Positions 27,136 to 63,344 of a stretch of DNA of 64,000 bases are shown piece by piece (position 1 is the first letter of the stretch; each line of letters opens with the position of its first letter). Origin of the DNA: Escherichia coli (GTDB taxonomy: Bacteria > Pseudomonadota > Gammaproteobacteria > Enterobacterales > Enterobacteriaceae). The position numbers and the translations under genes were made by a program. The notes under the pieces were generated by a model. That model was not told the DNA's origin and did not search any database. It was given only the letters and a program-made list of their open reading frames with translations. The stretch is taken from NCBI RefSeq assembly GCF_016903815.1, contig NZ_CP069973.1. The stretch is one strand, 5' to 3'.

Positions 27136-27444
27136 TTATGTAAGCGTTATTTACTTAAGCGTGGATATATAAGAATGGTATTATCAATATGTTGCTCATG
27201 AGTTTTTAATAGCATATAGGCTTGTTAACATAGCCCAGCAATATAATTTGCAGTGGGAGCAGGTATGCATACAGAACAGTGGGCGAGGACGAGCGTCCCT
27301 TTTCGAACAAGGTAGCAAAAGAGGAAGAAGAAAGACAAATACAACTGGGCCTGAAAGGGTAGTGTTTAAGCCCCCTTTCAGGGGGCCGTGTCAAAGCCGC
27401 CCGCTATGCAGATGGTTTTTTACTTTATCTGTTAAGCAAAAAAA

Positions 27445-27474
27445 TGCCGCGATAAAGAAATTGTTATCGCGGCA
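27445..27474 (-). terminator. Rho-independent terminator ending the microcompartment operon
   Basis: 10-bp stem GCCGCGATAA/TTATCGCGGC followed by a T7 run on the minus strand. Confidence 0.65.
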
Positions 27475-27491
27475 GCGTCATAGCAATTTAC

Positions 27492-28037
27492 TTATTTTTT
27501 CTTGCCGCTGGAACGAGGACCTTTCTTTGCTGCCTCCTGCGGTACATCAGATTTTGTAGGTTTAGTGTTTTCTATTGAGGGTTTAACCGGTTGATGCTGC
27601 TCCATGGACTTCAGCGTTTCATCAGTGACATCCATACAGGATGCGCTGATTGACGTATCAAGGTTAACCACCGGGAATGTCTGTGAAGGCGCGTTTTCAG
27701 CCTGCAGTGTCGGTTGTGCAGCAGGCACTTCAGGTTGAGGTTCTGCGACGCCGGCGGTCACTTTAGAGTGAATAATCTGCTCGATATGCTGCGCGGTGCG
27801 GGCGATCACCTTATGGGCATACACCTCGCCAACCCGGCTTGCCGCGCTGATGGCTGCCGCTACCGCCGCGTTAATTGCGCCCACTTCCCCTTCCAGCTTC
27901 ACGGTCACCATCCCGCCGCCTTTCGTCAATTCATAGCCTACCAGACTAACGTTAGCGGATTTCATTGCGGCATCGGCGGCTTCTACCGCCGCAGACATCC
28001 CGACGGTTTCGATTAAGCCTAAACTTTTCCCAGACAT
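27492..28037 (-). CDS. BMC-H shell protein (PduA/EutM fold) with a long C-terminal extension (PduK-like)
   Basis: MSGKSLGLIETVGMSAAVEAADAAMKSANVSLVGYE... canonical BMC domain; start at internal Met with AGGAGA upstream. Confidence 0.85.
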   Translation of the reverse strand: MSGKSLGLIETVGMSAAVEAADAAMKSANVSLVGYELTKGGGMVTVKLEGEVGAINAAVAAAISAASRVGEVYAHKVIARTAQHIEQIIHSKVTAGVAEPQPEVPAAQPTLQAENAPSQTFPVVNLDTSISASCMDVTDETLKSMEQHQPVKPSIENTKPTKSDVPQEAAKKGPRSSGKKK

Positions 28038-28081
28038 AAATTTCTCCTGTAATAAATTCAACTGTGCTGCGCGTCGTCGGC

Positions 28082-29233
28082 TTAACGTCCAACGTCTTCG
28101 TATAATAGCGCCGCTTTGTCCGTAACTTCCCACGGAAAGCTGTCGCGACCAAAGTGACCATAGCAGGCTGTTTTACGATAGCGGGGGACCAGCAGATCAA
28201 GCGTAGTAATGATGCCGAACACGCTAAGATCGAAATGGCTGTTAACGCCTCTCAGCAACGCTTCAGATGACACTGTTTGTGTACCGAAGGTGTTAATCCT
28301 GACGGAAACAGGGCGGGGCAGGCCGATGGCCCATCCCAACTGGACTTCACAGCGTGAGGCAAGCCCAGCGGCGACGATGTTTTTCGCCACATAGCGAGCA
28401 GCGTAGGCGGCGGAACGATCGACTTTCGACGGATCTTTGCCTGAAAACGCGCCGCCGCCATGGCAAGCCGCGCCGCCATAGGTATCAACAATAATTTTAC
28501 GCCCCGTTAGCCCGCAGTCACCCACCGGCCCGCCAATCACAAAACTGCCTGCAGGGTTCACCAGAAAGCGGGTTTGTGGCGTGAGCCAGTGCGAAGGCAT
28601 CACAGGTTTAACAATTTCTTCGATGACCGCTTCCCGTAGCGCGTCCAGAGAAACGTCAGGGCTGTGTTGGGTAGACACCACAACGGTATCTACTGAATGA
28701 ACACGATTATCCTGATAGCGCAGGGTAACCTGGCTTTTGGCATCAGGGAGTAAAAATGGTAACCGTTGGGATTTACGCAACTGCGCCTGGCGCTCCATCA
28801 GACGATGGGCGTATACCAGCGTGGCGGGCATCAGTTCCGACGTTTCATCACAGGCGTAACCGAAGGTGATGCCCTGATCGCCCGCCCCCAGTTCTTCCAT
28901 CGAGTGGCCGCGAATGCCGTCAGCAATATTGGCGGACTGTTTGCCAAGGATATTTAATACACAGCAGGTATTGCCATCAAACCCCAATCGCGAATGGTCG
29001 TAACCAATCTCTTTTATGGTGTTGCGGACAATCTTCTCAATATCCACGGCGGCATGGGTAGATATTTCTCCGGCAACAATAGTGGCACCAGTTTTCACCA
29101 AGCATTCACAGGCAACCTTACCCCACGGGTCCTGTAGGAGTATCGCATCCAAAATGGCATCAGAAATTTGGTCCGCCATTTTATCGGGATGCCCTTCGGC
29201 AACGGATTCGGAGGTAAACAGGTAATCGTTCAA
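28082..29233 (-). CDS. S-adenosylmethionine synthetase (MetK paralog) embedded in the microcompartment locus
   Basis: [32 protein letters not shown]... and [19 protein letters not shown] motifs. Confidence 0.9.
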
Positions 29234-29361
29234 AGCGAGCCCACTTGTTTGGGAAGTTTATTCCTATCTTAGGATAGGAACCTGACAAGTGGGCGTAAAC
29301 TATCTTGCGGGCGTGTTGGACTATTTTGCTTTCATTATCGGGCCAATGCAAAATCACGCCA

Positions 29362-30417
29362 TCACCGTGTAATTCCCGGGGACACGACTTTTCGATAATC
29401 AGAGGGGGTCATGCCAGTATCTTTTTTGAAGATGCGGCAAAAATAGTTTGAATCCTGGTATGCCAGTTCCAGCGCAATGGTATTTACTTGTAAGTCACTG
29501 AACCGCAATAACGATTTGGCGATAGTAATTTTACGCGTGGCAATATAGTTCGAAAACCCGAACCCGGTAATTTTCTTAAAGGTACGGCTCAAATAGCAGG
29601 CACTGACAAACGATTTTGCTGCCACGTCATCGAGCGTCAAGTTTCTGAGAATATTTTTCTCAATATGGAATTTCGCTCGTTCGATAAAATCGATATTGCC
29701 TGTATAGCCTTTTAATGCGTAATCAAACAGTTCTTCGCTAATGGTCAGCAGGCTGATCATGATGCGGAAATAGCGGCTTTCCATCATGCCATACTGGTTG
29801 ATGTCTTTGATCAGCGCGGCGACTTTACGGTTAGTCGGCATTAACTTTTCCCCTTTGGCGGTCATATACTGGCTAACTATTTCCAGAAAATCGATCACGT
29901 CTTTGCGCTTATCCTCTTCTATCATATCCACCGGACAGGCACCGTTGATCGTGTCAAAAATAAAGTTGTGCCACTGGGTGTAATCGCAATCGTCTATCAT
30001 GGCGAACACTTTCTGTTTTAGGGCGCGGGATTTTTCATTTTCTCCTTCGTCGAATGCTAGGGTTTTTTTGATGGTGTCGGTCAAGATACATTTTTTCACT
30101 GGTTTGAGCAGATAATCATCCACTTTAAGGTTGTACATGCTGCGTACTATATCAAAGTCATCATTGGCCGTGATTACGATGATTTTAGTATCGCTGTTTT
30201 TTTTCTTCAGATATTCAATCACCTGTTTACCGTTCGGCAACGGAATATTAATATCCACTAAGATCATATTGATTTGACTCAGTTGGTCAATTAAGTGAAT
30301 CGCTTTTTTACCGGTTGAGGCTTCATGGATCGCAGCGTTTTCCACACACTGGGAGATAATCTGCCGCAGGGATTCTAATTCGATGGGCTCATCTTCAACG
30401 ATAACAATGGTAAACAT
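29362..30417 (-). CDS. Response regulator, REC domain plus AraC-type HTH output
   Basis: N-terminal receiver (IVIVEDEP ... LVDINIP) and C-terminal AraC HTH. Confidence 0.8.
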   Translation of the reverse strand: MFTIVIVEDEPIELESLRQIISQCVENAAIHEASTGKKAIHLIDQLSQINMILVDINIPLPNGKQVIEYLKKKNSDTKIIVITANDDFDIVRSMYNLKVDDYLLKPVKKCILTDTIKKTLAFDEGENEKSRALKQKVFAMIDDCDYTQWHNFIFDTINGACPVDMIEEDKRKDVIDFLEIVSQYMTAKGEKLMPTNRKVAALIKDINQYGMMESRYFRIMISLLTISEELFDYALKGYTGNIDFIERAKFHIEKNILRNLTLDDVAAKSFVSACYLSRTFKKITGFGFSNYIATRKITIAKSLLRFSDLQVNTIALELAYQDSNYFCRIFKKDTGMTPSDYRKVVSPGITR

Positions 30418-30433: not shown

Positions 30434-31696
30434 TCAGGCTTCCTGCATTGGGAACCGAAGTTTAATGGTTGTACCCATCCTGGGTTTGTTAGGGCTCATT
30501 ATTTCCAAGCCATAGCTCTCGCCAAATAACAACTTCAATCTATTTTTTATGTTGTTAATACCAATACTGCCTTTTTGCAATTTTTGGTCGCCTGATAAAA
30601 TGCGATTAATGGTATCTGGTGCGATGCCGTCGCCATTGTCAGTGACTTCAATAATCACGTTCAGGCCATCGTCCGTGGCACGGATCAGCAGATGACTATT
30701 GCTATCCCTTGGCTCCACTACGTAGTTAAAGAAGTTTTCCACCAGCGGTTGCAGGATCAAAAACGGGCAGACTACATCCAGATATTTTTCCGGGATATCG
30801 CACAGGTAATCGAAACGGTCTCTCATACGCACTTTTTGGATCGACATATAGTTGTTGACGTAATTTATTTCATTACGCAGAGTAATCAGGCCGTGACTAT
30901 TTTTACGTAACAAATAGCGCATCATGTCAGAGAAATCGTGCACCATTGTTTCGGTACGCTGCGCATCTTCAAGAAAAGCTAACCGGCCAATGGTATTTAA
31001 TACGTTAAATAAAAAGTGCGGATTTATCTGATAAGAGAGCGCTTTAAATTCAGCTTCATGTAGTGAGCGTTCTATCTCTACACGTTTTCTTAACTCATTA
31101 GCCAGTGCAAGATCCTTTTTACGAAGTTCGCGTTGGATATTATTGGTGTGCGCTTGTTCGACCAGATAAGACGATACGTGTAGTAACGTCGAGGCAGTAG
31201 ACTCAAAACGCTCATACGGCATGCGACGTGTATTCTGGTGCAAATTAATTAACCAAGGATTATCTTTCCAGACGTCATTATTATTCAGAATATAGGAAAT
31301 GCTCTGTTCTTTCTCTTCTTCGACTTTTACCTGACCGGAAATAAAAGCACCGAGATAATGATCGTTAATCATGATTGGGACAGCGAATTCGACAAAACCG
31401 CAGTGGCAGCGATAAACCACCGGTTTGCGAGCGTGCATCGCGGCACGGCCACCAGCGTTGTCGCTTTCATAACAGTGGTGCGCCAGTGTCGGGTTGAGAC
31501 GCGAACGCATGCAGAAGTCTGAAAAACCGCTGGGCTTAGTGACCGGGATACCATTCTCATCCACAACCACGAGCGCGATCATCATTGATTTTGAAAAGTT
31601 GTCCTGCAGGGTCTGAAGGCGTTTTACATCCAAAAACTCATTTAATTTGTATTTATTCTTCATACTTTCAGCCTGCATTTTTAAAAACATAATCAT
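30434..31696 (-). CDS. Sensor histidine kinase with PocR-like sensory domain; start may be a downstream Met (about 31663)
   Basis: His-kinase motifs ([13 protein letters not shown]) and HATPase region; N-terminal domain resembles PocR. Confidence 0.75.
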
Positions 31697-31965
31697 ATAT
31701 TTATAAATAATTTGTCACGAAAAAATTGAAATGGATCACAGCAACAAAAACAGCTCCGGCTCTGAAAGTAATGCTTCGGTTATTTGCAAGGGATACTCCT
31801 TTTCAAACCTTGCTGAACCAGTGCAGATACACAGGGAAACGTATACCAGAACTGCCACAATACAAACGCCAGTTACTGGCGATACGAATGGAATGACGAG
31901 GCAGTCTGTCAGAAAGCCCCACATGAACGATCACCACCTACATAGGAGGTGTTTTAAAATTGATC

Positions 31966-33769
31966 GAGTAGGAGGCGGGATCACTCCCGCCGTCCTCTCA
32001 CACCACCGTACGTGCGGTTCCGCATACGGCGGTTCATGTTAACTCTGGAACTGCCTCTACTGTTCCAGCAGTGATATCAGACCCTGCCTCCTGAACCATG
32101 CATTCTTTATCGCCTGATTCATATGGCTTGACCCTGAGTTCCACCATGGCCCGTGGTTGTTGTACGCAGAGATCATTGCCCTGTCCTTACTCAGTCCTGC
32201 TCTTTGCAGATTCTTTGCCCGGGTTCGCGGTCTCTTCCACTGCCGCTACAACAAGCAACGCAGTTTCCGTTTGATCCAGCCATCCAGCTCCTCCAGCACT
32301 CCTCTGACTTCCGTCAGCCTGAAGTAGCTTATCCATCCACACAGCACTGGTGTCAGAGCATTGATTGTCGCTTTCACTGATTTGCTCCGGTTTCCCGTCG
32401 TCAGACTGTGGACTTTCTCCTTCAGCCTGTTCACGCTCGTCAGGGCTATCTTCAGCTTCGCCTGTTTGTGCCATGTCACACTGTACCCGAGGAACTTCCG
32501 ATCCCACGGGCGCGCCACCGCGCTCTTCTTCTCATTCACCTTCAGTTTGTTCTCCACGAACGCCCTGATGTTCTTCAGCAGATGGTCGCCCGCTTTCCGG
32601 CTGCTTACGTAGATGTTGCAGTCGTCTGCGTAGCGGCAGAAGCTGTGTCCACGACGCTCTAGTTCTTTATCCAGTTCATCCAGCAGGATGTTCGACAGTA
32701 ACGGCGACAGTGGGCCGCCCTGCAGCATGCCCGCCTGCCGTTTCTCCCTTTGCCCGTCTTTAACCATTTCCACTTTCAGGTAGCGGCGTATCAGTCACAG
32801 CACCCGCCTGTCCTTTATCGTTCTGGCCAGACGCGTCATCAGGAGTCTGTGATCCACCCGGTCGAAGAACTTCTCCAGATCCATATCCACCACCCACCGT
32901 TTGCCACCCCGTATGTAACGCTGTGCCTGTTGCACCGCCTGCTGGATAAGCCTGTCCACCACCGTCGGGATGCCTGAGGTTCTCACGCCGCCATCCGGCT
33001 TCGGGATATCCATCCGGCGTATTGCCCGCGGCTGGTAGTTTCCGTCAATCAATGCCTGCCTGACGCTGCGCCAGTTCTTCTTCAGCCACGGTTTCAACTC
33101 CGCCACGCTGAGGTTATCCACCCCCGCCGTGCCTTTGTTTTCCAGCACGCGCTGATAAGCCAGCATCAGGTTTTCTCTCGTTATCACCGCTTCCATCGTC
33201 AGCGGCACTTCCGCTTTCGTTTGCCCACCCGCCGCCGTGCTGATTTCAGCGCCATCATGCAGCCCTGACGGATACTGTCCGTCTCCTCTGCCGCTGGTCG
33301 CAGTTGCCTGCGCTTGTGCTTCATTAATCATCATCGGGTTCGGATGTCCTAATCACAGTTAATCATGTTCGGCCCTTCATGCTGCCGGTTTTGCAGCACT
33401 ACTACGGCGTCGGCTGACTTCTGCCGCCCCATCCCGGCGCCTCACGGCGCCGGTAGCACACTGGCAGGGCGACAGATCTCCCGGGGTAATTCACGTGACT
33501 TTCCTGCTTATGCCTGTCGGCTTTACGTCACAGCGTTCCGTGTGAGTATCGGGCTTTGGTGATTTGTGCCACCTTACCCTGCTGCGCCGCCTTAACCGCT
33601 TCCTGTTCGTCAGGCCAGCATTTTGCATCCAGCTTCCTTCAGATTTCACCTCGCGATGAACACCCTTGCCTTCCGCTAACACTTCCCCTCACCGGGTGTG
33701 TGGAGGACTTTCACCTCTTAGTCGTTCTTCTGCCACCACAGTTGAAGAACAGCGCCAGTCACGGCGCAC
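31966..33769 (-). mobile_element. Degenerate group II intron (class C-like) inserted after a terminator hairpin
   Basis: 5' end GTGCGCC immediately after hairpin 33771..33810; domain V-like CCGTATGCGGAACCGCACGTACGG near 32000; disrupted RT ORF inside. Confidence 0.65.
32246..33334 (-). pseudogene. Group II intron reverse transcriptase, disrupted (in-frame stop, internal deletion, C-terminal truncation)
   Basis: Two abutting ORFs (179 and 175 aa) with RT motifs FCRYADDCNIY and GGPLSPLLSNILLDELD. Confidence 0.8.
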
Positions 33770-34861: not shown

Positions 34862-35779
34862 TTAACCGCCGATATGGCAGTTAAAACCTAAGGATTCAAC
34901 CATTGCTTTTAACTCTGCCATTTGGGCTTCTTCGATACTTTTTGTATCGCCCATCGGATACTGGCGACCAAGCAGATTATATTTATTTTCACCGAAGCTG
35001 TGATAAGGCAATAAGTGAATGGTATCGACGTTCTGCATCAGGCGGGCGAACTCCGCAATATTATGGATTTCCTGCGAATTGTCATTCACTCCTGGGATCA
35101 CAGGAATACGCACAACCACTTTGGTTAAAAAGGAGATGCGCAGCAGATTCTCCAGAATCACTCTGTTATTCACGCCGGTGTTGCGCTCATGGATTTCCGG
35201 ATCGATGGCTTTAATATCGGTCAGAGCAAGATCGACATAGGGAAATACCTCATCAATCACCGCTTTGGTGGTGAAGCCGCTTGTTTCAATAGCGGTGTGC
35301 CAGCCTTTGGCTTTACAGGCTTTAAGCAACTCGCGGGCAAATTCCGGCTGCGCCAGCGGTTCACCACCGGACAGGGTAATCCCGCCGCCTGAACGCCGGT
35401 ATAAATTCTCTTCTTTTTCCAGTTCGCGCATCACTGCCGTTACCGACATACGCTTGCCCTTCATTTCCAGCGCACGGGTAGGGCAAATCTCAGTACATTT
35501 CCCACACTGAATACAGCGGTCGCGATTGATAAACCAGGCATTAGTAATGGAAAGAGCCTGTTGTGGGCAAGCATCAATACATTTTCCACAGCGGATGCAA
35601 TCATTCTTTTTAAATAATAACTCTGGGCTGTGACGTTGTGATTCAGGATTACTACACCATTTGCAGGACAGCGGGCAGCCTTTAAAAAAAGGAATGGTTC
35701 GAATGCCTGGACCATCATGCAAAGAATAGCGTTGAATATTAAATATGACGCCTTCGGTTTCGTATTCAACTTTATTCAT
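34862..35779 (-). CDS. Glycyl-radical enzyme activating enzyme (radical SAM, with ferredoxin-like insert)
   Basis: CPLSCKWCSNPE radical-SAM motif plus CIRCGKCIDACP and CIQCGKCTEICP clusters. Confidence 0.9.
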   Translation of the reverse strand: MNKVEYETEGVIFNIQRYSLHDGPGIRTIPFFKGCPLSCKWCSNPESQRHSPELLFKKNDCIRCGKCIDACPQQALSITNAWFINRDRCIQCGKCTEICPTRALEMKGKRMSVTAVMRELEKEENLYRRSGGGITLSGGEPLAQPEFARELLKACKAKGWHTAIETSGFTTKAVIDEVFPYVDLALTDIKAIDPEIHERNTGVNNRVILENLLRISFLTKVVVRIPVIPGVNDNSQEIHNIAEFARLMQNVDTIHLLPYHSFGENKYNLLGRQYPMGDTKSIEEAQMAELKAMVESLGFNCHIGG

Positions 35780-35887: not shown

Positions 35888-38440
35888 TTACGACAGTTGT
35901 TGCTCAGTACGGCTGATTATGTCGTCCTGAACTTCTTTCGCTAAAACTACCCACTGGGCGCTATAGCCCGCAACGCGTACCACCAGATCCTGATGTTGCT
36001 CAGGATTTTTCTGGGCTTCGATCAAAGTGTTGCGGTCGATAACGTTAAATTGAACGTGCATCCCTTTCTTATCGAAGTAGTGACGTATCAGGCCGCTGAA
36101 GTTGCGCAGACCGTTCTCGCCAGCCAAAGAAGACGGCAGGAATTTCTGATTATAGAGCGTACCGTTGGAGGCGATAAAGTGATCCAGTTTGGCAACTGAG
36201 TTGGCTGCGGCGGTTGGGCCAAGGGTGTCTTTACCCTGACGTGGAGATACGCCATCCGCCAACGGCTCTTTCGCCAGACGGCCATCCGGCAGTGCGGCAA
36301 CGTCTTTACCAAACAGCACGTTCGCAGACACCGGATAGATACCAGCCTGGAACTGGCCACCGCGCGGGTTGGTATATTTCTCAACTTCCTGGCAGTAGAT
36401 CAGCGCACATTTACGCGCTACTAAATCCACGTCATCGATGTCGTTACCGAAGCACGGTGTGTTTTCCAGAATACGACGGATCTCCTCGTGACGGGACATA
36501 GTGCCGGATTGCACCGGTGCTGCACTGCCGGAAGTCAGCTGGCGATAAACTTCGTTTTTAATCGCTGCCGGATCCAGAGCGCCATGCTGTTCAATGATGC
36601 GTTTCACCACATCGTAGATATCCTGCTCGTTGAGCGAGGATTTCGCCGCTGGAGTGTGCGGGTTCGCACCCACCGGATAACCGAAGTTGGCGTCCAGTGC
36701 GCTTTTCAGTTCGCTCAAAGACAGTTTACGATCTTCGAATACCTGTTTCTGGATGGCATAGACGGAGTCGCCGGTATCGGCTACGCCGAATGCTTGCGGC
36801 CCAGTAAAGTTGTAAATCGCCCCGCCTTCCTGGAGAGATTTACCACGGCCGATACAGTCGTCGACCAGTGCTGATAGGAACGGCAGCGGGCAGCGTTCGC
36901 CGTGGGCAATATCCACGCTGTTACAGGCTTCAACCAGTTGATGAACGAAGTGCGCCATCTGTTTCTGGAACGCGGTGTAGAAGTCCTCCATGCTGGTGAA
37001 CTGAGTCAGTTCGCCAGTCACTGGGCCTAGCTGTTTATTGCCAACGCGACCGTTGTTCAGGGTGATTTCCAGCACTTTTGCAACGTTAAAGAACGCGGCG
37101 TCATGCCAGCCCTCGGTGCGATGCGGTGCCTGCGGCTCTACGCAGCCGATGATACAGTAATCACGCGCATCACGCAGCGAAATGCCACGGTTCTGCAGCG
37201 CCGGGATGATTACTTCATCGTTGTACATTGCCGGAACGCCCAGGCCCATACGCACCAGCTCGCAAGCGCGATACAGAAACTCATCCGGAGTACCCTGCCA
37301 TACGCGGATTGAGAAGGATGGCTGCGGCAGACGCACATGGGCAGTCGCTTCCATACACATGTAGCTCAGATCGTTAGTTGCGTCGCGACCGTCTTCTGTC
37401 TGGCCGCCACAGCACAGGTTCTGGAACACTGCGTAACCGGCAAACGCCTGGGCAGAGACTTCGTCACGCGTTTTGTTAATGTCGTTAAGCTTGATCCAGC
37501 AGCAATCCACCAGTTCCTGCGCGAATTCACGCGAGATAGATTTGTCCGACTCCAGATACGGGTACATATACTGGTCGAAACGCCCCGGGGAGATAGAATG
37601 ACCGCTGGATTCAATCTGTAACATGCTCTGAATAAACCAGAATGTCTGGCATGCTTCCCAGAATGTGGTAGCACCGTATTCCGGCACGCGAGTACAGTTT
37701 TGAGCAATCTGCTCCAGTTCGCGTTTACGGGTCGGATTGCTCTCCTGCTGCGCCAGACGGGATGCTTCTTCAGCGTAACGATGGGCGAAACGGATCGCTG
37801 CGTTATAACTGATCAGCACCGCATTATAGAACTGTTCTTTCTTTATATATCCTGGTTCAGTGCGATCTAATGATTCCAAGGCACGGCTAACTTCATTAAT
37901 GATACCACGGAAACCAATTTTCAGCACTTTACCGTAGTCAACACTGACATGACCGACGCCCCCGAAGAAGTAGTTACCAACAGTGAATACACCGCTCGCC
38001 ATACTCTCTTTAGTGCCTTCTGACATGTAAGATGCCGCCAGAGCACTGGTAGTTTTACCCGGCCAGTATTTAAATGCTTCATGAAGCTCCTGAGCAGTCT
38101 TTTTCGGGATAACAAACGGGTCGGCAATACGGTGTTCCATAGTCTCAAACTCTTTTTCCACCCAGTCGTAGGAGAACTCAGGGCAGATTTCAGTTGAGCG
38201 AGGATTAATAGTTACCGCTCCAACGATTAATTCGTCTGGGCGAATTGTTACCGGTAATTGGTTAAAGATTTTTTCCACCACTTTAGCACGACGCATAATC
38301 GCGGGCAGTTGTTCTGTTTCTTTATATGCTTCGGTTGCTAACACCGCGCGTTCTGATTCCACATACGGCTTCGCCGTCAGGATCATATTTCTCAGTCTTA
38401 CAACACGGTCTGTCGGATTAGAAAAGCCTTTCTCTAACAT
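35888..38440 (-). CDS. Glycyl radical enzyme (PFL-like), 850 aa, probable 1,2-propanediol dehydratase-type
   Basis: C-terminal glycine-radical motif RVAGYSAQWV and catalytic loop GCVEP; substrate is inferred from locus type. Confidence 0.85.
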   Translation of the reverse strand: MLEKGFSNPTDRVVRLRNMILTAKPYVESERAVLATEAYKETEQLPAIMRRAKVVEKIFNQLPVTIRPDELIVGAVTINPRSTEICPEFSYDWVEKEFETMEHRIADPFVIPKKTAQELHEAFKYWPGKTTSALAASYMSEGTKESMASGVFTVGNYFFGGVGHVSVDYGKVLKIGFRGIINEVSRALESLDRTEPGYIKKEQFYNAVLISYNAAIRFAHRYAEEASRLAQQESNPTRKRELEQIAQNCTRVPEYGATTFWEACQTFWFIQSMLQIESSGHSISPGRFDQYMYPYLESDKSISREFAQELVDCCWIKLNDINKTRDEVSAQAFAGYAVFQNLCCGGQTEDGRDATNDLSYMCMEATAHVRLPQPSFSIRVWQGTPDEFLYRACELVRMGLGVPAMYNDEVIIPALQNRGISLRDARDYCIIGCVEPQAPHRTEGWHDAAFFNVAKVLEITLNNGRVGNKQLGPVTGELTQFTSMEDFYTAFQKQMAHFVHQLVEACNSVDIAHGERCPLPFLSALVDDCIGRGKSLQEGGAIYNFTGPQAFGVADTGDSVYAIQKQVFEDRKLSLSELKSALDANFGYPVGANPHTPAAKSSLNEQDIYDVVKRIIEQHGALDPAAIKNEVYRQLTSGSAAPVQSGTMSRHEEIRRILENTPCFGNDIDDVDLVARKCALIYCQEVEKYTNPRGGQFQAGIYPVSANVLFGKDVAALPDGRLAKEPLADGVSPRQGKDTLGPTAAANSVAKLDHFIASNGTLYNQKFLPSSLAGENGLRNFSGLIRHYFDKKGMHVQFNVIDRNTLIEAQKNPEQHQDLVVRVAGYSAQWVVLAKEVQDDIISRTEQQLS

Positions 38441-47846: not shown

Positions 47847-48064
47847 GTGTAACTACCTTAATCATGGTAAACGACCAAATTTGATGTCGTTAACCTAACA
47901 TGGCGATTTTTTTAATGGACTGAGGATGTTTGTGCAGGTGAAGGATTATTTTGCGGTATTGTTTTGCCTTGAGCAAAAAAGTCCTTTTCTAGGAAATACC
48001 TAAAATCTGATACAGTCAAACTCAATATTTATTGTCAGAGAATGAATAAAAGCGGGGTGTTTTT

Positions 48065-60604: not shown

Positions 60605-63344
<2,740 letters not shown>

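Follow-up and report, generated by a model that had tools for sequence, protein, structure and literature searches.

GrpR, a second S-adenosylmethionine synthetase encoded within the grp microcompartment locus of Escherichia coli, and its probable role in supplying the glycyl-radical enzyme activase

The window analysed here, meaning the whole 64,000-nt stretch of Escherichia coli DNA, carries a gene for a methionine adenosyltransferase (MAT, SAM synthetase) within a microcompartment locus. According to RefSeq and family scans, the surrounding 20 kb represent the annotated grpA-grpS operon, which encodes, beside GrpM and GrpN, an aldehyde dehydrogenase, a phosphotransacylase, a kinase and an alcohol dehydrogenase, as well as five shell proteins and the GrpP/GrpQ two-component system (Table 1). 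The source genome matches strain M217 and others at 100% over the 2 kb compared (positions 27400-29400 of the window), and in a 100%-identical genome the same coordinates are annotated by RefSeq as grpR. The copy of strain CFT073 (NZ_CP158446.1) is the same gene: it shows 99.9% nucleotide identity over 1152 nt, is likewise flanked by grpQ and grpS, carries an identical RefSeq product name and does not differ in any substantial way. The grp genes were reportedly named by Lundin et al. 2020 (J Bacteriol 202:e00017-20) in a description of the GRM3-type 1,2-propanediol microcompartment of uropathogenic E. coli CFT073.

The first-pass annotation of this DNA had placed the gene between the two-component system and the last shell gene, and this position is correct: grpQ lies upstream and grpS downstream, all on the minus strand. 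The activase gene, which was described there as adjacent, is in fact separated from grpR; grpN is located 5.6 kb upstream, with grpO, a group II intron, grpP and grpQ in between. The protein encoded by this intron is split between two reading frames, 32795..33334 (annotated as a 'maturase') and 32246..32767 (a reverse-transcriptase domain protein). The 3′ end of a second group II intron was also detected in the window (RF00029, 62788..62874, plus strand), following an ORF of 507 aa (61261..62784) that presumably represents an intact intron-encoded reverse transcriptase/maturase.

Table 1. Features of the grpR region and of the neighbouring part of the grp locus (positions in the window).
Feature	Position	Strand	Description
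Terminator-like hairpin and T-run	27445..27474	minus	Directly after grpS; putative end of the unit; consensus match only
grpS	27492..28037	minus	Shell protein of the BMC-H type, extended by a long C-terminal tail; strong SD (AGGAG) and ATG start; always after the MAT gene
grpR CDS	28082..29233	minus	383-aa methionine adenosyltransferase (SAM synthetase) paralogue; TTG start; uninterrupted ORF
Nested hairpin, outer stem CCCACTTGT / ACAAGTGGG	29240..29293	minus	Pairs the sole SD-like motif AAGTGGG (29246..29240)
TAAGAT	29266..29271	minus	Resembles a -10 hexamer; 23 nt separate it from the proximal repeat upstream
Tandem direct repeat GCAAAATAGTCCAA / GCAAGATAGTTTAC	29295..29329	minus	21-bp period; putative operator of AraC type (GrpQ?)
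grpQ	29362..30417	minus	Response regulator with AraC-type DNA-binding domain; family scan and RefSeq
grpP	30434..31696	minus	PocR-domain sensor histidine kinase; family scan and RefSeq
Group II intron	31963..33660	minus	grpO-grpP spacer, in operon orientation; Rfam D1-D4 at 33372..33660, domain V/VI at 31963..32034
grpN	34862..35779	minus	Glycyl-radical enzyme activase (radical SAM); TIGR02494, 414 bits; RefSeq; presumed SAM consumer
grpM	35888..38440	minus	Glycyl-radical diol dehydratase; TIGR01774, 788 bits; RefSeq

The claim that grpR is a full-length gene of the MetK type is borne out by the intact ORF, by a profile scan and by alignment with MetK. The NCBIfam metK equivalog model TIGR01034 matches residues 5-377 of 383 with 588 bits, at a cut-off of 309.4, and the three-domain N/M/C architecture of MATs (PF00438, PF02772 and PF02773) is recorded in the precomputed Pfam annotation of an identical protein (P0001). 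GrpR and E. coli MetK share 64% identity and 78% similarity in an alignment that is free of gaps from end to end, and residues 3-381 align without a gap to the solved structures of E. coli MetK (PDB 1FUG, 1P7L, 1RG9 and 7LL3), which belong to the same fold family and have 384 aa. At the DNA level, grpR and metK are 65.5% identical. Eighteen positions of MetK, which we take to be catalytic or ligand-binding (H14, D16, K17, E42, E55, Q98, D118, D163, K165, S186, F230, D238, R244, K245, K265, K269, D271 and I302 in E. coli numbering without Met1), were compared, and all 18 are identical in GrpR, in 13 other members of its clade and in MetK. The dN/dS ratio of grpR is 0.05-0.09 in comparisons with six to nine relatives (Nei-Gojobori, where dS is unsaturated), and the gene is under strong purifying selection. 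It is most likely that GrpR is a catalytically competent SAM synthetase, which would produce SAM from methionine and ATP.

As revealed by a megablast search, grpR DNA is present in 538 of 5426 complete E. coli genomes, with at least 99% identity in 535 of them. All 538 carriers have the gene over its full length, and every copy is annotated grpR and flanked by grpQ and grpS. A distant blastn search with grpR also gave metK matches in 5425 of the 5426 genomes (the matches of about 65% identity carry the annotation metK), and two matching places each, grpR and metK, were seen in the listed grpR-positive records (H16, H17). The gene is thus a second copy beside the chromosomal metK, as the first-pass annotation had supposed, and the notion that it is the sole metK of the genome is ruled out by the same matches. 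A pseudogene, the other finding that would have spoken against a functional paralogue, is ruled out by purifying selection, the retained catalytic residues and the full-length coverage. No other MetK-like sequence was found within the window. Unlike metK with its chromosomal context, grpR belongs to an accessory island carried by about 10% of E. coli, where it stands behind an AraC-type regulator module. One copy with 100% identity is located on NZ_CP173464.1 (64,877 bp, classed as a plasmid), which may carry a plasmid-borne or mis-assembled grp island.

A large protein search found relatives 70-96% identical to GrpR in Enterobacter, Atlantibacter, Leclercia, Silvania, Buttiauxella, Pectobacterium, Brenneria, Rahnella, Raoultella, Klebsiella and Vibrio, all of which resemble GrpR more closely than E. 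coli MetK does. The genomic context was checked for three relatives, and in all three the order of genes is PocR-kinase, response regulator, MAT and BMC shell gene, adjoined by genes of a glycyl-radical enzyme, its activase and other BMC proteins. To avoid conditioning on the MAT, loci were also fetched via the regulator GrpQ, a full-length relative of which was found in 11 species. In ten of these species the MAT gene lies immediately downstream and is followed by a GrpS homologue, the MATs being 67-96% identical to GrpR and 58-64% identical to E. coli MetK. Counted over the loci compared, the order grpQ-MAT-grpS of the window recurs in 13 others, and the pair of MAT and shell gene is present in 14 of 15. 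Clade loci with GrpP, GrpQ and GrpS together with glycyl-radical enzyme, activase and BMC genes were found in Atlantibacter, Citrobacter, Silvania, Rahnella, Raoultella, Klebsiella indica and Vibrio. Judging by the loci compared, the GrpR clade appears to be confined, across Enterobacterales and Vibrio, to a module consisting of PocR-kinase, regulator, MAT and shell gene.

Comparison of GrpR with chromosomal MetK, proposed earlier as a check of identity and phylogeny, placed the two proteins in separate lineages. In bit scores with solved structures, GrpR scores 552 to E. coli MetK, and MetK scores 579 to the MATs of Burkholderia or Neisseria; from each of the other MATs, GrpR is consistently more distant by 25-80 bits. 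Since the distance of GrpR to MetK is about that of MetK to beta-proteobacterial MATs, GrpR is not a recent duplicate of metK. A recent duplication is ruled out by the DNA and protein identities given above and by a bit-score distance on the gamma-versus-beta-proteobacterial scale. In comparison with MetK, GrpR belongs to a faster-evolving lineage with a weak TTG start codon and with 21 substitutions that are invariant across the clade and differ from MetK; the proteins of the clade contain 5-10 cysteines each versus 4 in MetK. It appears that GrpR represents an old and faster-evolving MAT lineage of the proteobacterial type, which has been horizontally spread and moves together with the locus.

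The orientation of the module differs between the loci. The grpP-Q-R-S genes and grpO/N/M converge from opposite strands in Atlantibacter, Citrobacter, Silvania, Rahnella, Raoultella, K. indica and V. salinus, and also in the rare E. coli allele PK5074 (90.9% identity), which is devoid of the group II intron. In two Vibrio loci the grpP-Q-R-S genes constitute a separate unit upstream of grpA. In all of these loci the module is transcribed apart from the enzyme genes. Among the loci compared, only the common CFT073-type island of E. coli has these four genes co-oriented with the enzyme genes, and the group II intron sits exactly at the junction where they are inverted relative to other genera and PK5074. 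Since neither the other genera nor PK5074 show co-orientation, the common E. coli layout is probably derived and points to an inversion in the CFT073-type lineage. The co-orientation of the gene with the operon, which had been pointed out in the first reading, is therefore true of the window, where all these genes lie on the minus strand, but is not a general trait. As its neighbourhood in the different genera suggests, the MAT gene is part of the module of regulators and shell protein and not of the enzyme operon.

A natural loss of the MAT gene was found in Rahnella perminowiae. Alignment of its locus (L013, 2230..2470, on a short contig of 3.9 kb) with that of Rahnella sp. AA (L012, 11040..12420) is continuous up to the MAT start codon and resumes 36 nt before grpS, with no MAT remnant between. 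The kinase, the regulator, the operator repeats, the leader and grpS are all kept. Such a clean excision of the ORF indicates that the MAT can be dispensed with, at least in this lineage.

The spacer between grpQ and grpR contains a tandem direct repeat. Each of the 14 MAT-bearing loci scanned, Vibrio included, has the pair, with one copy 87-96 nt and the other 66-75 nt ahead of the MAT start. In 13 loci the two copies lie at -93 to -96 and at -72 to -75, and in Vibrio EJY3 at -87 and -66. The Vibrio spacers are otherwise barely alignable, yet the repeat pair is kept. The repeats follow the motif GCAA(A/G)A(A/T)A(G/A)T(C/T)(C/T), and related copies are located upstream of grpA (about 47941..47985) and in the grpG-grpH spacer (34810/34830 in locus L001). 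The motif is a candidate GrpQ operator that would define three grp promoters; with the published GrpQ footprint on fimS it shows a loose resemblance only. In the aligned leaders of nine Enterobacterales and of V. salinus, a TAnnAT block follows the proximal repeat after 22-23 nt; in V. methylphosphonaticus the block is shifted, and in Vibrio EJY3 its placement is ambiguous. In the class II mode of activation by AraC (araI1-I2), direct-repeat half-sites two helical turns apart abut the -35 region. Because the geometry of the grp repeats corresponds to this arrangement, we infer a GrpQ-dependent promoter for grpR-grpS, and the conserved features suggest that these two genes have an inducible promoter of their own. 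A generic sigma-70 scan of the grpQ-grpR spacer reported no promoter, as is expected of an activator-dependent promoter with a poor -35 region; the promoter is deduced here from conservation.

The start codon of grpR is the TTG at 29233. An in-frame TAA precedes it by 27 nt, and no in-frame ATG follows until codon 19, beyond the essential GHPDK motif, which leaves TTG as the sole workable start. The MAT gene also begins with TTG in Atlantibacter, Citrobacter, Silvania and Rahnella, as in Escherichia, and with GTG in Raoultella, K. indica and V. salinus; ATG was found only in two Vibrio species. The SD sequence of grpR is weak, whereas grpS, 44 nt downstream, has the strong combination of AGGAG and ATG. 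This difference suggests a low output of MAT relative to the shell protein.

The only SD-like motif of the leader is paired in a nested hairpin (Table 1), the inner stem of which is formed by TTCCTATC / GATAGGAA; the leader as a whole has a predicted folding energy of -43.5 kcal/mol (z = -3.87). The outer stem is kept only in the close group of Escherichia, Atlantibacter, Citrobacter and Silvania. Since its 5′ arm would lie upstream of the deduced transcription start, the hairpin would form only in transcripts reading through from grpQ. No Rfam match was obtained in the grpR leader at the gathering threshold or at E <= 10, and the consensus structure of leaders from 11 genera or alleles amounts to -2.08 kcal/mol in RNAalifold with negligible covariation. 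A SAM riboswitch or related RNA element (SAM-I to SAM-VI, SMK box, SAM/SAH) in the 128-nt spacer was considered and rejected, as there is no Rfam match and no structure shared across genera. For these reasons the leader is not read as a riboswitch, and the motifs at the DNA level are preferred. As a sign of MetJ control, tandem met boxes (AGACGTCT repeats, 3 mismatches at most) were looked for and found neither in the grpR leader nor in the metK leader used as a positive control, and the graded met-box scores of both leaders are at the level of shuffled sequences.

An encapsulation peptide, which had been proposed as a feature to look for, was taken to be an N-terminal, C-terminal or inserted extension of about 18 aa, comprising an amphipathic helix and a linker and absent from homologues outside compartments. 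No such extension is present in GrpR compared with MetK, and none is conserved among 13 relatives. The single N-terminal extension in the clade is an artefact of the start call (a valine, encoded by GTG, stands at the aligned start), and the C-terminal tails of 7-14 aa seen in a few species are not conserved. The lack of an encapsulation-peptide-like extension leaves a supply of SAM inside the compartment without support. The partner GrpS has a C-terminal tail of about 90 residues, of low complexity and with a lysine-rich end, which diverges fast between genera: tblastn covers 58-77% of GrpS in distant loci, and the tail is shorter in R. perminowiae.

The gene is already known and is named in RefSeq; publications of 2014 and 2020 had introduced it and the supply hypothesis. 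SAM synthetase was listed as an ancillary gene of GRM3 loci on the basis of Pfam co-occurrence, with the same inference of SAM supply (Axen, Erbilgin and Kerfeld 2014, PLoS Comput Biol, PMC4207490); neither Zarzycki 2017 nor the Ferlez 2019 review mentions it. In comparison with the work of Axen et al. 2014, the clade structure, the organisation of the module, selection, the start codon, the operator and the natural deletion were worked out here. In a 2025 study (PMC11724981), grpR served as the qRT-PCR reporter of the grp cluster: deletion of grpP/grpQ lowered grpR expression with 1,2-propanediol under anaerobic conditions and left it unchanged under aerobic conditions (PMC11724981). Neither a phenotype of a grpR mutant nor a report of a need for grpR in 1,2-propanediol fermentation or in GrpM activation was found in the accessible literature, the naming paper, Lundin et al. 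2020, being outside its scope.

A supply of SAM encoded in the locus and serving the glycyl-radical activase is a reasonable reading of this gene content. We assign a probability of roughly 65% to GrpR being the MAT of the grp island that supplies SAM to the activase GrpN on induction by 1,2-propanediol. PocR-kinase GrpP, regulator GrpQ, MAT GrpR and shell protein GrpS travel together as a four-gene module, which would be induced when 1,2-propanediol is sensed anaerobically. GrpR would then add SAM-making capacity under the control of grp rather than of metK. GrpN presumably cleaves one SAM for each glycyl radical installed or re-installed on GrpM, and the extra SAM would serve as the co-substrate during a burst of new glycyl-radical enzyme that needs activation. 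The weak TTG or GTG start, the weak SD sequence and the lack of a targeting extension are consistent with a soluble, cytosolic enzyme of low abundance. This reading draws on the genomic linkage, the purifying selection and the induction known from the literature; the SAM need of GrpN, the GrpQ-dependent promoter at the repeats and the cytosolic location of the enzyme are deduced.

The size of the demand has a bearing on this role. Activases of this type use one SAM per activation event and not per turnover, so the demand for SAM is small and the housekeeping MetK might suffice. The faster evolution of GrpR than of MetK would fit with a relaxed importance. GrpR could be a largely redundant passenger between the promoter and an essential shell gene, contributing little to physiology, which would be in line with the almost universal presence of housekeeping metK, the faster divergence, the clean loss in R. 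perminowiae and the stoichiometrically small SAM demand of activation. A pure passenger would be expected to decay, however, and grpR has kept its dN/dS ratio low across divergences, its 18 catalytic positions invariant, its place in ten of 11 species from Vibrio to Escherichia and its full length in every E. coli carrier; this reading is therefore disfavoured and appears unlikely. Another alternative, a neofunctionalised MAT with altered substrate preference, product inhibition or oxygen/redox sensitivity, or with a moonlighting regulatory function, is very unlikely. The clade-invariant substitutions, the additional cysteines and the long branch would agree with it, but the methionine-, adenine-, phosphate- and metal-binding positions checked are unchanged, the isoleucine of the gating loop is kept, and the profile score is well above the cut-off of the metK equivalog model.

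Location is the other point at which the readings part. GrpR might reside in or on the microcompartment, perhaps recruited via the GrpS tail, and regenerate SAM from ATP and the methionine released by GrpN, with ATP coming for example from the acyl kinase of the locus; by analogy, the internal recycling of B12 in Pdu compartments would be the parallel. The strict retention of the pair of MAT and shell gene (14 of 15 loci) favours such a location, and a luminal need for SAM is conceivable, as a review (PMC6325248) takes GRM activases to enter the compartment by piggy-backing on the glycyl-radical enzyme. The absence of N- and C-terminal extensions from GrpR, with the few short tails of its relatives not conserved, speaks against it, although other cargo is known to be encapsulated without a canonical peptide. 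The weak TTG start argues for low abundance, and the GrpS tail is poorly kept and persists in the MAT-less Rahnella. A luminal MAT would, moreover, release PPi and Pi, and 5′-deoxyadenosine would still need to be removed. On balance a location in or on the compartment seems rather unlikely. A bolder combination, in which grpR-grpS is a separate GrpQ-activated unit and the MAT is coupled to the compartment by docking on GrpS or by luminal regeneration of SAM, is quite improbable; if it were true, radicals could be re-installed inside a closed shell, and SAM would be recycled there much as B12 is within Pdu compartments. Supply of SAM to GrpN by a cytosolic GrpR remains the preferred reading.

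The Pdu locus encodes the adenosyltransferase PduO, the reductase PduS and the reactivase PduGH, which keep the radical cofactor of diol dehydratase available. By analogy, GrpR may be regarded, like these recycling enzymes, as a locus-encoded supply of a cofactor. The Pdu enzymes differ in being associated with the compartment, whereas GrpR shows no targeting feature and its SAM would be spent in activation and not in each turnover. The gene touches on the open question of how glycyl-radical enzymes acquire and regain their activity within or near a protein shell, and for which cofactors a local supply is needed. The clade, the weak start, the putative operator, the lack of a targeting peptide and the deletion in Rahnella refine this picture and do not change it. 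The locus is also of relevance to uropathogenic E. coli, in which GrpP/GrpQ have been tied to virulence.
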